Shown piece after piece: positions 10,727-16,989 of a stretch of 16,989 bases of DNA. The stretch is from a virus. Position 1 is the stretch's first letter, and every line of letters starts with the position of its first letter. The stretch lies in UHGV virus genome UHGV-0048692; one strand, given 5' to 3'. The notes beneath the pieces were generated by a model. The model made no database searches and was not told the origin of the DNA. It saw only the letters and a list, made by a program, of their open reading frames with translations. Both the position numbers and the translations under genes were made by a program.

Positions 10727-11120
10727 AGCGGTGCCTTATGTCCGCAATAACCCGGACAAACTGCATCTGTTTGTGGATAACGGTTCGCTGGTTGCCACGG
10801 GGGCCAGCTCCATGTCATGGGAGTACCGCTATACCCTGAACGTGGTGATAGAGGATTTCAGCGGCGACCAGAATCTGCTGATGGCCCCGGTTTTACTGTG
10901 GCTTCGGGATAACCAGCCCGATGCCATCAATAACCCGGCGTTACGGGAAAAGCTATTCACCTTTGATGTGGATATTTTGCGCAACGATGTCTGTGATATC
11001 AGCCTTAATCTGCAACTGACGGAACGTGTGCTGGTCAGCACTGACGGCAGTGTGTCGAGCGTTGAAGCTGTAGCAGAACCCGATGAACCTGAAGAAATGT
11101 GGACGGTGAAACGTGGCTGA
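10689..11120 (+). CDS. R: Tail completion protein, P2 gpR-like (about 143 aa from GTG 10689)
   Basis: GTG at 10689 with AGGAG 7 nt upstream. The track's ORF begins at TTG 10668. Position after lysC. Confidence 0.7.
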   Translation: MNKPQSLRHALNKAVPYVRNNPDKLHLFVDNGSLVATGASSMSWEYRYTLNVVIEDFSGDQNLLMAPVLLWLRDNQPDAINNPALREKLFTFDVDILRNDVCDISLNLQLTERVLVSTDGSVSSVEAVAEPDEPEEMWTVKRG

Positions 11121-11559
11121 ACTGCAGAAGGTGGACGACTGGCTGAGTGCCTTGCTGGCGAATCTGGAACCAGTCGCAAGAAGCCGCATGATGCGCCAGC
11201 TGGCGCAGGAACTGCGCCGGACACAGCAGCAGAATATCAGGATGCAGCGCAATCCAGATGGCAGCAGTTATGAGCCGCGCAGGGTAACAGCACGCAGCAA
11301 AAAGGGGCGCATCAAACGTCAGATGTTTACAAAGCTGCGCACCACACAATACCTGAAAACTGCCGCCAGCGCCGACTCTGCCAGCGTGCAGTTTGAAGGC
11401 AAGGTACAGCGCATTGCCCGTGTTCATCACTACGGCTTACGTGATCGCGTCAGCCGCAAAGGACCGGAGGTACGGTACGCAGAGCGGCAGTTGTTGGGGA
11501 GCAACGATGAGTTAGAGGCCATCACTCATGATATTTTACTTCATTGGTTGTCAGGGTGA
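11113..11559 (+). CDS. S: Tail completion protein, P2 gpS-like, 148 aa
   Basis: Position and size (P2 S about 150 aa). Overlaps R by 8 nt. Confidence 0.8.
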   Translation: MAELQKVDDWLSALLANLEPVARSRMMRQLAQELRRTQQQNIRMQRNPDGSSYEPRRVTARSKKGRIKRQMFTKLRTTQYLKTAASADSASVQFEGKVQRIARVHHYGLRDRVSRKGPEVRYAERQLLGSNDELEAITHDILLHWLSG

Positions 11560-11560
11560 G

Positions 11561-12412
11561 TTATATAAAAGGGTTTCTATAATCACTAAAATTCCAGTTG
11601 ATATGATGATCGCTGAATTCTGCTTCTTTTAATATGACTAGGCAGTTTAATCGTTTAAATTGTGAGTAAAAATCCTTTAGTGCAAAACTGATTGTTTTAG
11701 AGCCTCTTTTCATCGGCATGGTTTGGAATTGACCATTGTGAAATAATGCGTTCCTTAAGCTACAGTAAATATCAAGTGAGATGTCATGATGTTTATTGTT
11801 TTGTTGATTTATATTAAACCCATGCTTTTTGAGGTAACGATACATGATTGGCGTAATGTTTGATTTAAAATCATTCTCACGTTCTCGAACTAATGACTCA
11901 AGGCCAGAAAAAAGTAAGTAATATGATACATCAAGATAATTTATTGGATTAGAGAAAACCAATACATTTTTATGAGGTATTGTGGTAAATGGTCGATCTC
12001 TAGCAATGATGATCTTATTTATAGCAAGTTCAATAAAGTAGCGTCTTGAGTTTTTGGAAAAGCAATCTTCAAGAATGATTTCTCCTGAACTTGATAAGTT
12101 AATATTAGGAGTTATAAAGAGAGGGTAATCTATGGGCAAGTCAAATTTATGAGTCTTATTATTTAGTTGGTGTCTGATAAATACTGCTCTCTGTTCTATA
12201 AAACTCAAAATTTTCTCTAGATGAAATATGATATTATCTGTTTCGCTCTTGTCTATGATGTCAAGTTCAAGGAGCGCAGTAAGATATAATTTTTCCTTGT
12301 CTTGTCTATATTTTTTTAATTTAAGAAAACTGGTTTCTATTGGATACATTGTCCCGAATGAAAAGTGAGTTATCTTTGTTAGAGTAAAGCCGTAAATACC
12401 AACAGTAAACAT
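11561..12412 (-). CDS. Hypothetical protein, 283 aa, strongly AT-rich moron on the opposite strand between S and V; possible abortive-infection-type protein
   Basis: Long clean ORF whose composition is clearly foreign to the phage backbone. One R-x4-H motif (RNALFH, residues 220-225, nt 11738-11755). No P2 late gene of this size at this position. Confidence 0.6.
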   Translation of the reverse strand: MFTVGIYGFTLTKITHFSFGTMYPIETSFLKLKKYRQDKEKLYLTALLELDIIDKSETDNIIFHLEKILSFIEQRAVFIRHQLNNKTHKFDLPIDYPLFITPNINLSSSGEIILEDCFSKNSRRYFIELAINKIIIARDRPFTTIPHKNVLVFSNPINYLDVSYYLLFSGLESLVRERENDFKSNITPIMYRYLKKHGFNINQQNNKHHDISLDIYCSLRNALFHNGQFQTMPMKRGSKTISFALKDFYSQFKRLNCLVILKEAEFSDHHINWNFSDYRNPFI

Positions 12413-12425
12413 TCAATCTCCATTT

Positions 12426-12443
12426 TGTATCTTCATTCATACA
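12426..12443. promoter_or_regulatory. TGT-N12-ACA dyad upstream of V (putative late promoter PV activator site)
   Basis: TGTatcttcattcatACA, centred about 55 nt upstream of the V start codon. Confidence 0.35.
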
Positions 12444-12489
12444 AATTTCTTCGCAATGGTAGGACATTCTAATGTGAGACACTTTAGAA

Positions 12490-13068
12490 ATGAACGCACA
12501 ATTAACCGAAATCATGCGCCTTATCACCAACCTGATCCGCACAGGGGTAGTCACCGAAGTGGACAGGGAAAACTGGCTTTGCCGGGTGAAAACGGGCGAG
12601 CTTGAAACCAACTGGATCAGCTGGCTGATGCTGCGTGCCGGGAATGCCCGTACATGGTGGCGACCATCGGAAGGTGAGCAGGTGGTGCTGCTGAGTCTGG
12701 GCGGCAATCTGGAAACCGCCTTTGCGCTGCCCGCTGTCTATTCGAATCAGTTCGCACCACCGTCGACGTCGGCGGACGCCTGCGTGACAGAACATCCTGA
12801 CGGTGGCTGGTTTGAATACGAACCCGCCACCGGGCGCTGGTATGTCAGGGGCATCAAATCAATGGTCATTGAGGCTGCTGACAACATCACCATGAAAACC
12901 AGTGAGTTTGTACTGGAGGCTGACCGCACGCGCATTAACAGCGAAGTGGTGATCAATGGTGGCGTTACCCAGGGCGGCGGAGCGATGAGTTCTAACGGGA
13001 TCGTGGTTGATGCGCATCAGCATACTGGCGTCCTGAAAGGCGGCGATACAACCGGAGGCCCGGTATGA
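12490..13068 (+). CDS. V: Baseplate spike/assembly protein, P2 gpV-like, 192 aa
   Basis: N-terminus and Gly-rich C-terminus resemble P2 gpV. Position before W. Confidence 0.85.
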   Translation: MNAQLTEIMRLITNLIRTGVVTEVDRENWLCRVKTGELETNWISWLMLRAGNARTWWRPSEGEQVVLLSLGGNLETAFALPAVYSNQFAPPSTSADACVTEHPDGGWFEYEPATGRWYVRGIKSMVIEAADNITMKTSEFVLEADRTRINSEVVINGGVTQGGGAMSSNGIVVDAHQHTGVLKGGDTTGGPV

Positions 13069-14917: not shown

Positions 14918-16416
14918 GCACAAAATTTTATACCCTGCTGACGGATATTGGCGCGGCGAAACTTGCCAGCGCCGCCGCGCTCGGTGTGCCGCTAAAAATT
15001 ACCCATATGGCGGTGGGCGATGGCGGCGGAGCATTGCCGACGCCGGACGCAAAGCAGACGGCACTGGTAAATGAGAAACGCCGGGCTGCGCTGAATATGC
15101 TCTATATCGACCCGCAGAACAGCAGCCAGATTATTGCTGAACAGGTGATCCCTGAAAACGAGGGCGGTTGGTGGATACGTGAAGTGGGCCTGTTTGATGA
15201 GTCCGGGGCATTGATTGCCGTGGGAAACTGCCCGGAAAGCTATAAGCCGCAACTGGCTGAAGGCAGCGGGCGTACCCAGACCGTGCGCATGGTGCTGATC
15301 ACCAGCAGCACGGACAATATCACCCTGAAAATCGACCCTGCTGTAGTGCTGGCAACCCGTAAATACGTGGATGATAAAGTCCTGGAATTAAAGCTGTATG
15401 TGGATGACCAGATGAGAAACCACATTGCCGCACAAGATCCTCATACCCAGTATGCGCAGAAACATAATCCGACATTTACCGGAGAACCAAAAGCGCCGAC
15501 GCCTGCAGCAGGAAATAACACCACTCGGATTGCGACCACAGAGTTTGTTCAGGCCGCTATTACTGCTCTGATTAACGGTGCGCCAGCCACGCTGGACACA
15601 CTGAAAGAAATTGCCGCAGCCATTAACAATGACCCGAAATTCAGTACCACTATTAATAATGCACTGGCACTGAAAGCGCCGCTGTCGAGTCCGGCACTCA
15701 CCGGAACGCCAACAGCACCTACTGCGGCACAGTCGGTCAACAATACACAGATTGCCACCACGGCATTTGTGAAATCGGCGATTGCGGCAATGGTGGGTTC
15801 TGCACCTGCGGCACTGGATACACTGAACGAACTGGCGGCGGCACTGGGGAATGATCCGAACTTTGCCACGACAATGCTTAATGCGCTGGCAGGTAAACAA
15901 CCGCTGGACAATACGCTGACTCATTTGAGTGGAAAGGATGTAGCAGGTCTTCTCGCATACCTTGGTTTGGGAGAAGCGGCAAAACGAAATGTGGGCAACG
16001 GGGAAAACCAAATCCCTGATATGTCTTTCTGGACGGTTACTGGTGGCAATGGAAATTTTGTGATTCGTCAACCTGACGGGCTAATCATTCAGATGGTTAC
16101 TGTAAGTATAAGCGGTCCAGTGGCGATGAATGGAATGACTGATAATGCTTATGCCATTACAGGTTCTAATAAGTCTTATATTGCCACAGCCACATTGCCC
16201 TTTGTATTTCCTAATAAGGTGCTGGGCGTTATCCCTCTGGTATCAACAACAGCTTATGGTGGTGTATCCAGTAATATTACAGGTTCATACGCGACGGCGG
16301 TTTGTTCTTTTGCCGCTGTCAGGGGGAATAATACGATTGTGTTCAAAGTCGACAAACCACTGAATGCAGCCTTTCCTTCAGATACCAGCGTCTCAGCGTT
16401 AATCATTGGACGGTAA
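14914..16416 (+). CDS. H: Tail fibre protein, P2 gpH-like, 500 aa, with a compositionally distinct C-terminal receptor-binding part
   Basis: Conserved N-terminus MSTKFYTLLTDIGAAKLA..., internal tandem fibre repeats (IATTEFV... and IATTAFV... units), AT-richer C-terminal third. Confidence 0.85.
   Translation: MSTKFYTLLTDIGAAKLASAAALGVPLKITHMAVGDGGGALPTPDAKQTALVNEKRRAALNMLYIDPQNSSQIIAEQVIPENEGGWWIREVGLFDESGALIAVGNCPESYKPQLAEGSGRTQTVRMVLITSSTDNITLKIDPAVVLATRKYVDDKVLELKLYVDDQMRNHIAAQDPHTQYAQKHNPTFTGEPKAPTPAAGNNTTRIATTEFVQAAITALINGAPATLDTLKEIAAAINNDPKFSTTINNALALKAPLSSPALTGTPTAPTAAQSVNNTQIATTAFVKSAIAAMVGSAPAALDTLNELAAALGNDPNFATTMLNALAGKQPLDNTLTHLSGKDVAGLLAYLGLGEAAKRNVGNGENQIPDMSFWTVTGGNGNFVIRQPDGLIIQMVTVSISGPVAMNGMTDNAYAITGSNKSYIATATLPFVFPNKVLGVIPLVSTTAYGGVSSNITGSYATAVCSFAAVRGNNTIVFKVDKPLNAAFPSDTSVSALIIGR
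15950..15975. other. Putative site-specific inversion crossover site (Hin/Gin/Cin/Pin-type) inside H
   Basis: 26-bp imperfect palindrome TTCTCGCATACCTTGGTTTGGGAGAA, about 19 of 26 identical to hixL as I recall it (TTATCAAAAACCTTGGTTTTCAAGAA). Sits where composition changes within H. Confidence 0.5.
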
Positions 16417-16418
16417 GA

Positions 16419-16862
16419 ATGAACTCAGTATTCTTTTCACCCGGAAGTAAAAGTTTTTATCTGCAAGAATTGTTTCCAGAATATGAGGATGCGGGAACGC
16501 TTCCTGATGATGTTATTGAAATTACCAGAGAAACATATGAGCAATTTCTTGGGCTGCATCCAGAAGGGAAAGAAATTGGCGCTGACAGTTCAGGACGACC
16601 AGTATGGATTAATTCCCCACCGCCTTCAAAAGAGGATGAGGTGCTGGCGGCTGAAATGAAAAAAATATCTTTGGTTTCAGAAGTCAATACCTACATCAAT
16701 ACCCATCAGTGGCCTGGCAAAGCTGCTATTGGTCGTCTGAAAGGTGACGAGCTGGAACAATATAATTTATGGCTGGATTATCTGGACGCACTGGAACTGG
16801 TCGATACTTCCGGTGCGCCAGATATTGAATGGCCTACGCCTCCGGCAGTTCAGGCCAGATGA
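16419..16862 (+). CDS. G: Tail fibre assembly chaperone, P2 gpG-like (Tfa family), 147 aa
   Basis: Position after H and a typical Tfa C-terminus (...DIEWPTPP...). Confidence 0.8.
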   Translation: MNSVFFSPGSKSFYLQELFPEYEDAGTLPDDVIEITRETYEQFLGLHPEGKEIGADSSGRPVWINSPPPSKEDEVLAAEMKKISLVSEVNTYINTHQWPGKAAIGRLKGDELEQYNLWLDYLDALELVDTSGAPDIEWPTPPAVQAR

Positions 16863-16989
16863 CATCCGGCGCGGTGCTGGTATCTGTTGCCGTCACCGCG
16901 TCAATGTAATCCAGCACAGCGTTAAGTCGGGTGTTTTCTGTATGCGTCAGCTTCCGCCCGGCCTGTAATTTCAGTTGAATCAGACTGAT
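16834..16989 (-). CDS. 3' part of a second, convergent tail-fibre-assembly gene (partial; ...NAVLDYIDAVTATDTSTAPDVIWPELPEA*)
   Basis: Frame open on the - strand from the window edge to TAG at 16834-16836. Tfa-like C-terminus. Overlaps the 3' end of G by 29 nt. Confidence 0.55.
   Translation of the reverse strand: MSLIQLKLQAGRKLTHTENTRLNAVLDYIDAVTATDTSTAPDVIWPELPEA

Follow-up and report, generated by a model that had tools for sequence, protein, structure and literature searches.

The window, by which we mean the whole stretch of 16,989 nucleotides that was analysed, is the late region of a P2-like prophage, and a near-identical copy in E. coli strain 504237 (99.8% nucleotide identity over 11400–12600) adjoins ssrA. 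Between the tail-completion gene S and the baseplate spike gene V lies a minus-strand ORF for a 283-aa protein, hereafter the cargo gene, as a sequence-only reading of this DNA had described; the ORF call and the Pfam assignments of both flanking genes confirm the arrangement (Table 1). The ORF is also, as that reading had it, the most AT-rich stretch of the window, with a GC content of 0.31–0.32 over 11601–12400 against 0.52–0.58 in the flanks; the second-lowest GC in the window is 0.355, at 2201–2800. A single nucleotide separates the S stop codon (TGA, 11557–11559) from the stop codon of the convergent cargo gene (11561–11563), again as described, and 77 bp lie between the cargo start and V. 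Two other statements of the sequence-only reading held in part. The cargo gene does start close to a TGT-N12-ACA dyad, but the distance from dyad to ATG (12410–12412) is 13 nt and not 14, and the gene does oppose the late genes, but the rest of the window is not all co-directional, as the portal gene Q and the terminase gene P also lie on the minus strand, which is their orientation in P2.

Table 1. Features of the S/V junction and its cargo gene, with structural matches and related genes elsewhere
Feature	Location or entry	Strand	Remarks
Cargo gene	11561..12412	-	ATG start; 283 aa plus stop; protein of ~33 kDa
Gene S, tail completion / virion morphogenesis	11113..11559	+	Pfam Phage_tail_S, E 1e-39
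Gene V, baseplate spike	12490..13068	+	Pfam Phage_base_V and Apex
Shine-Dalgarno GGAG of cargo gene	12418..12421	-	5-nt spacer to ATG; read from the sequence
TGT-N12-ACA dyad, Ogr-type late promoter of the V operon	12426..12443	+	within or just upstream of the cargo leader
Candidate -10 hexamer TAGAAT of cargo gene	12466..12471	-	putative; block TCTCACATTAGAATG identical in the RE2010 locus
Exchangeable cassette: diverged S 3′ end, cargo gene and its own variant of the PV spacer	~11400-11480 to 12489		
N-terminal alpha/beta domain, ~residues 1-118	12059..12412	-	beta-beta-alpha-beta-alpha-beta; putative sensor/regulatory domain
C-terminal helical domain, ~residues 119-283	11564..12058	-	predicted HEPN fold
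Putative catalytic Rx4H (RNxxxH) motif, R220-N-A-L-F-H225	11738..11755	-	conserved in homologues
Second conserved patch, E172...R176	11885..11899	-	helix LLFSGLESLVRER; aligns with ApeA LWIALESLV
Structural match of C-terminal domain	8xdj_A		HEPN toxin; match score 6.6
Structural match of C-terminal domain	5yep_B		HepT; match score 5.9
Structural match of C-terminal domain	7ae2_A		HEPN toxin; match score 5.7
Structural match of C-terminal domain	4nqf_B		HEPN domain protein; match score 5.7
Structural match of C-terminal domain	8jbc_A		Csm6; match score 5.4
Structural match of C-terminal domain	2hsb_A		HEPN domain protein; match score 5.0
Ec2ApeA	L019:2705-4456, E. coli JNQH497 prophage	antisense to late genes	beside TGT-N12-ACA dyad
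Ec3ApeA	L018:3601-5354, E. coli EC416 prophage	antisense to late genes	beside TGT-N12-ACA dyad

The ORF is a real gene under purifying selection. A search of 5.8 billion proteins returned 29 homologues at E ≤ 1e-3 (best E 4.5e-183), and a search without a word filter yielded 191 family representatives at 50% clustering, nearly all of them ~280 aa long. PHROG 4373, a group of unknown function, matched the protein over its full length (E 3e-134). Comparison with an 81%-identical Salmonella allele gave a pN of 0.107 and a pS of 0.624, corresponding to a dN/dS of ~0.09 at a dS that is near saturation, and the frame was intact in six E. coli genomes at 98.8–99.8% nucleotide identity; with the frame intact and pN far below pS, the ORF is very unlikely to be the degraded pseudogene that had been named as a possible objection. 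The GC content of all family alleles compared was 31–35%.

The family ranges over prophages of Salmonella, E. coli and Klebsiella, with relatives outside the enterics in Vibrio, Pseudomonas and Pseudoalteromonas. In Vibrio tubiashii, a 39%-identical member (L009:8001-8870) is situated amid a long array of short co-directional ORFs that adjoins an integrase on the opposite strand and looks like a chromosomal integron cassette array, and the Pseudomonas and Pseudoalteromonas relatives are found in islands with integrases or transposases. The gene neighbours of the relatives differ between lineages, none of them being conserved. A two-gene system was rejected because the genes that lie upstream in the Pseudomonas, Pseudoalteromonas and Vibrio relatives are mutually unrelated. 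The cargo gene stands alone in the window as well, with S and V its sole flanking genes.

The S/V junction is empty in several close relatives. Escherichia phage 500465-1, whose flanks are ~97% identical to those of the window, has an S–V gap annotated as 68 bp and no cargo, and the same late-promoter dyad starts 2 nt past its S stop codon. Klebsiella phages of the Kp48xx series and KP12 (flanks likewise ~97% identical) have the same short S–V distance; compared with these empty-junction phages, the window carries ~862 bp extra at S/V. Among complete E. coli genomes, this allele was present in 6 of 5,426, with the flanks matched in 991, and most of the flank matches spanning both S and V, among the matches listed, had the empty-junction spacing. 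E. coli genomes therefore display three S/V states: empty, this allele and other cargo. The sequence-only reading had proposed a moron and had pointed to an empty junction in P2-like relatives as the observation to look for; such junctions exist in 500465-1, the Kp48xx phages and KP12, and the contrary possibility, that the gene is universal at this site, is excluded by the same relatives and by its rarity in E. coli.

The ORF is thus an accessory, moron-type gene in the S/V slot, with an odd base composition and a variable place of residence, but the data do not fit a unique recent insertion. The same slot holds family alleles of 81, 57, 53, 46 and 37% identity, also opposite in strand to the late genes, in phages of Salmonella, E. 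coli and Klebsiella that belong to different genera of the Peduoviridae, such as Felsduovirus RE2010 and Gegevirus ST437-OXA245phi4.1. All enterobacterial alleles of 46% identity or more keep the 1-nt spacing between the S and cargo stops (loci L001, L012, L013 and L014). The family is a long-standing resident of this slot in several Peduoviridae genera. Between the loci of these alleles, protein identity was 45–81% for the cargo and 83–88% for S and V; the cargo diverges much faster than its flanks, as is typical of conflict genes.

Comparison with 500465-1 also delimited the exchanged unit. From its ATG on, V is 100% identical at the nucleotide level, whereas S is 87% identical overall, with identity falling from ~95% to 65% over 11400–11560; the last 80–160 nt of S and the entire 77-bp spacer between ORF and V differ from the empty-site phage. 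The identity of V and the divergence of the S 3′ end place a recombination boundary inside that 3′ end, which travels with the cargo, and the decay of S together with the diverged spacer indicates that the unit exchanged is a cassette (Table 1) swapped by recombination. No direct or inverted repeats were found flanking the cassette, and a transposon-style insertion was rejected, there being no terminal repeats.

This slot is the already described P2 orf30 site. The orf30, Z/fun and TO regions are the three regions of P2 that usually hold horizontally acquired genes, and Burkholderia phage KS5 has an Old homologue between V and S (PMC3091744). P2 orf30 resembles the cargo gene in its S/V position, antisense orientation, AT-richness and non-essentiality and in lying directly before the PV activator site (PMC3091744). 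However, Orf30 (261 aa), which we compared as a possible homologue, is unrelated in sequence to the ORF protein, and the terminator annotated between S and orf30 in P2 has no counterpart here, where a scan of the convergent junction, with 1 nt between the two stops, revealed no terminator-like site. Besides Orf30, the slot can hold a 503-aa P-loop NTPase, a protein with an FRG domain or one of 245 aa; the last of these and Orf30 were compared and proved unrelated, both to one another and to the family of the ORF. The genes for the FRG-domain protein (L016:478-1413) and the unrelated 245-aa protein (L017:474-1211) are both antisense and belong to E. coli P2-like prophages. In Klebsiella phage Kp4865-2, a plus-strand gene (L004:1565-3076) for the P-loop protein fills the junction, and its product has weak STAND/AAA-like Pfam matches and no clear PADLOC match.

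The 77-bp spacer between the cargo ATG and V also houses the PV promoter. Its TGT-N12-ACA dyad is present in the empty-site phage 500465-1 too, and the corresponding place in the P2 record is annotated as an activator binding site. A consensus promoter scan called no promoter upstream of the cargo gene, the TAGAAT hexamer included. With PV in the spacer and no terminator between S and the cargo gene, late O-operon transcripts may run antisense through the cargo gene, and Ogr may bind inside the cargo leader. H-NS silences the AT-rich cargo of a P2-like prophage in BL21 (bioRxiv 10.64898/2026.09.05.749240), and by analogy the ORF, at 31% GC, may be H-NS-silenced.

An AlphaFold2 model of the protein, built with a 25-sequence alignment, had a pLDDT of 90.2 and a pTM of 0.89 and comprises an alpha/beta domain followed by a helical one. 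Residues ~119–283 are helical in this model save for one small hairpin, and this part of the predicted structure has the all-alpha core fold of HEPN domains. The structural matches of the C-terminal domain are listed in Table 1; also among them were 1wwp, 1jog and 1ylm, which are HEPN/DUF86 proteins. For the N-terminal half, the matches were weak, to alpha/beta folds of TBP-like and RAM-like type. The sequence RNALFH is invariant in 25 homologues. H225 never varies across 105 diverged representatives, in which R220, N221, F224, E172 and R176 each reach a conservation of 90% or more, and the position of RNxxxH is the same in essentially all full-length representatives. The motif is thus a conserved Rx4-6H with a polar residue after the R, as in HEPN proteins, and the 90–100% conservation of R, N and H points to selection on the putative catalytic residues.

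The sequence-only reading had suggested a HEPN RNase from what it took to be a single Rx4H motif at 11738–11755. The motif is there, but it is not the only match, as RYLKKH at residue 192 also fits the pattern; that second match is not conserved. The suggestion itself gained strength from the confident AlphaFold2 fold, the HEPN structural matches and the conserved RNxxxH, and a HEPN-like fold is predicted with confidence for the C-terminal domain. The Abi_2-like fold raised alongside it found no support, as neither an Abi_2-like nor any other curated family matched.

Pfam, NCBIfam and PADLOC gave no meaningful match for the ORF or for 34 relatives, in the case of Pfam and NCBIfam even at E ≤ 10. 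As a positive control, we used the C-terminal CDS of the Ec3ApeA-type gene in E. coli EC416 (372 aa, with RNNIVH), which likewise matches no Pfam HEPN model; because a CDS that bears the HEPN motif is missed too, the Pfam absence carries little weight. Foldseek searches of PDB and BFVD returned nothing below E = 0.6, a profile search of PDB sequences returned solely 1htl, a chance match, and a database search with the 105-sequence profile reached no annotated distant family. UniRef names two family members 'Apea-like HEPN' domain-containing protein.

ApeA is said to have been described by Gao et al. in 2020 as a single-gene HEPN anti-phage nuclease. ApeA forms doughnut-shaped oligomers and cleaves tRNA anticodon loops, Ec2ApeA is triggered by deoxydinucleotides, and both Ec2ApeA and Ec3ApeA are experimentally active as HEPN anti-phage nucleases (bioRxiv 10.64898/2026.01.26.701840); ApeA can also cleave the genomes of RNA phages (bioRxiv 10.64898/2026.03.20.713152). 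A new observation is that these validated nucleases occupy the S/V slot of the ORF. Ec2ApeA is encoded antisense in the same V/S slot of P2-like prophages in 11 complete E. coli genomes, and the Ec3ApeA-type gene, also antisense, lies between V and S of a P2-like prophage in EC416, the only complete E. coli genome with the gene, which is there broken up into two CDS. The 5′ sequence that was cloned along with Ec3ApeA, as given in the supplement (bioRxiv 10.64898/2026.01.26.701840), holds the reverse complement of the V start and the TGT-N12-ACA dyad, and the text of that preprint makes no mention of prophages. Functional HEPN defences are thus demonstrably housed in this slot, in the orientation of the ORF, and the presence of ApeA nucleases in the same slot of sister prophages makes the ORF a good candidate for a compact anti-phage defence gene.

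The resemblance between the two proteins is one of motifs. An ApeA profile was built from 67 sequences, mostly of ~580–600 aa, and the HEPN part of Ec3ApeA was taken from the E. coli genome copy. Alignment of the ORF-family profile with the ApeA profile (hhalign) was not significant (E 0.096, probability <1%); its best segments were two functional patches in the same order (P ~0.02 each). In one, LFSGLESLV of the ORF aligns with LWIALESLV of ApeA, and both proteins have a C-terminal RNxxxH(S/N)G motif, which reads RNALFHNG in the ORF and RNNIVHSG in Ec3ApeA. Both are single genes with no partner, both sit antisense in the S/V slot beside the same dyad (Ec2ApeA and Ec3ApeA), and among solved HEPN structures the nearest to the ORF are the HepT toxins also named by the authors on ApeA (5YEP in both cases; 7AE8 in theirs, 7ae2_A here). 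In contrast to ApeA, the ORF encodes 283 aa rather than ~580–600, it has a ~118-aa alpha/beta N-domain and neither the helical N-terminal domain, the Mid domain nor the large HEPN insertions, its E-to-R spacing is 48 residues against ~131, and it shares no significant sequence similarity with ApeA by hhalign or PADLOC. Given its half length and the missing domains and insertions, we did not file the ORF as a member of the ApeA family, from which size, domains and sequence all separate it; the model and the shared motifs suggest an ApeA-like but much smaller HEPN protein.

We regard defence of the lysogen by a solo HEPN RNase that infection triggers as the likeliest function of the cargo gene, and on present evidence as a fairly probable one. 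The stand-alone ~33 kDa protein, with its alpha/beta N-domain and its predicted C-terminal HEPN domain bearing RNxxxH, would, by analogy with other HEPN enzymes, act with two HEPN domains paired into a composite RNase site that needs no metal. The enzyme would be inactive until infection by another phage was sensed, presumably via the N-terminal domain. Once activated, it would cut tRNA anticodon loops, or mRNA or phage RNA, and this cleavage would halt translation and phage growth. We infer the RNase activity, dimerization, trigger, target, defence phenotype and mode of expression alike.

Other HEPN systems offer partial parallels. The minimal toxins of HepT-MntA (5YEP, 7AE2 and 8XDJ) match the C-terminal domain best in structure and share the Rx4H motif, but they are toxins of ~130 aa paired with an AMPylating MNT antitoxin, whereas the ORF has an extra N-terminal domain and no adjacent antitoxin gene. 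DARNA/PD-T7-3 and the lactococcal AbiD/F/J/U2 are solo HEPN, infection-triggered RNases, as is proposed here (bioRxiv 10.64898/2026.02.22.705581; PMC3710099); however, no PADLOC or Pfam model of them matches the ORF, and DARNA, at 456 aa, combines an N-terminal HEPN domain with a C-terminal ssDNA sensor. RnlA/LsoA (RNase LS) was considered for the idea of a TBP-like domain joined to HEPN, and no similarity to RnlA was found. Beside the ORF we found neither an antitoxin gene nor a repeat-encoded antitoxin RNA, there being no tandem or inverted repeats and no Rfam match; a type III RNA antitoxin was rejected on the lack of tandem repeats and Rfam matches.

HEPN domains are also found in toxins and in non-catalytic RNA binders, and several other readings have to be set beside that of a defence RNase. 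One, more specific than the function favoured above, would make the family a 'mini-ApeA', half the size of ApeA and with a new N-domain replacing the ligand-sensing scaffold, and would make the S/V slot a dedicated, regulated dock for HEPN defences. We put this forward tentatively and think it unlikely as a whole. On this proposal, the ~118-aa alpha/beta N-domain in place of the ApeA scaffold would imply a different trigger, and the overlap of the cargo leader with the Ogr-activated PV, together with the terminator-less convergence with the O operon, could allow late transcription to switch the nuclease off during the phage's own lytic cycle.

Less probable than this is a HEPN RNase that serves the phage itself, whether as an addiction or selfish toxin by which the prophage is stabilized, as a weapon against P4 satellites or as a lytic host-shutoff RNase. 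HEPN domains are common as toxins (PMC3710099), conflict between P2 and P4 is known (PMC9122126), and an ATG 13 nt from an Ogr-dependent dyad means that expression could be tied to the late programme. Yet no antitoxin gene or RNA repeat array adjoins the ORF, the gene faces away from the late operons and is dispensable in close relatives, and the non-phage relatives in integron-like arrays and islands argue against a role specific to P2.

We give still less credence to the view that the HEPN-like domain is non-catalytic, for example an MtlR-like regulator that binds RNA or a ligand, or that the fold is misassigned and the function unrelated to RNA cleavage. Inactive proteins of this kind, such as AbiV, c2405 and Swt1-like proteins, have no Rx4-6H or a partial one (PMC3710099), whereas at least 90–100% of the 105 diverged representatives of this family retain R, N and H. 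That the cargo gene is now functionless, whether silent or in decay, seems very improbable: the DNA is AT-rich and likely H-NS-bound, the scan called neither promoter nor terminator, and one same-slot ApeA copy, that of EC416, is split into two CDS, but the frame is intact in all six of the near-identical E. coli copies, pN is far below pS and full-length alleles have been kept across genera.

A defence RNase of the kind favoured here would, if confirmed, bring into the anti-phage repertoire a family of compact HEPN nucleases that work without a partner. Systems of this kind are known already; the family, which comprises ~190 clusters at 50% identity and has no PADLOC, Pfam or NCBIfam model, is uncharacterised and has an architecture of its own. 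If its activity is confirmed, a protein this small would be a handy model of the off/on control of HEPN RNases. The results also suggest that the P2 S/V (orf30) junction is a defence slot, one far less studied than the old/tin and Z/fun hotspots, and near-identical prophages with filled and empty slots would be ready isogenic controls.

Elsewhere in the window, ORFs 775-1038, 1007-1447 and 2098-2748 had no significant Pfam or PADLOC match. They fall in a second AT-rich block (1-2800, GC 0.36-0.45) to the left of Q, at the classical old/tin hotspot, in which a plus-strand ORF at 134-772 matches the PADLOC candidate PDC-S42 (E 5.6e-28; positions 102-293 of the 302 in the profile) and is possibly truncated at the edge of the window. 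At the other end, GC is ~0.43 over 16000-16989, which takes in the 3′ end of the tail-fibre gene and the next ORF, of 147 aa.
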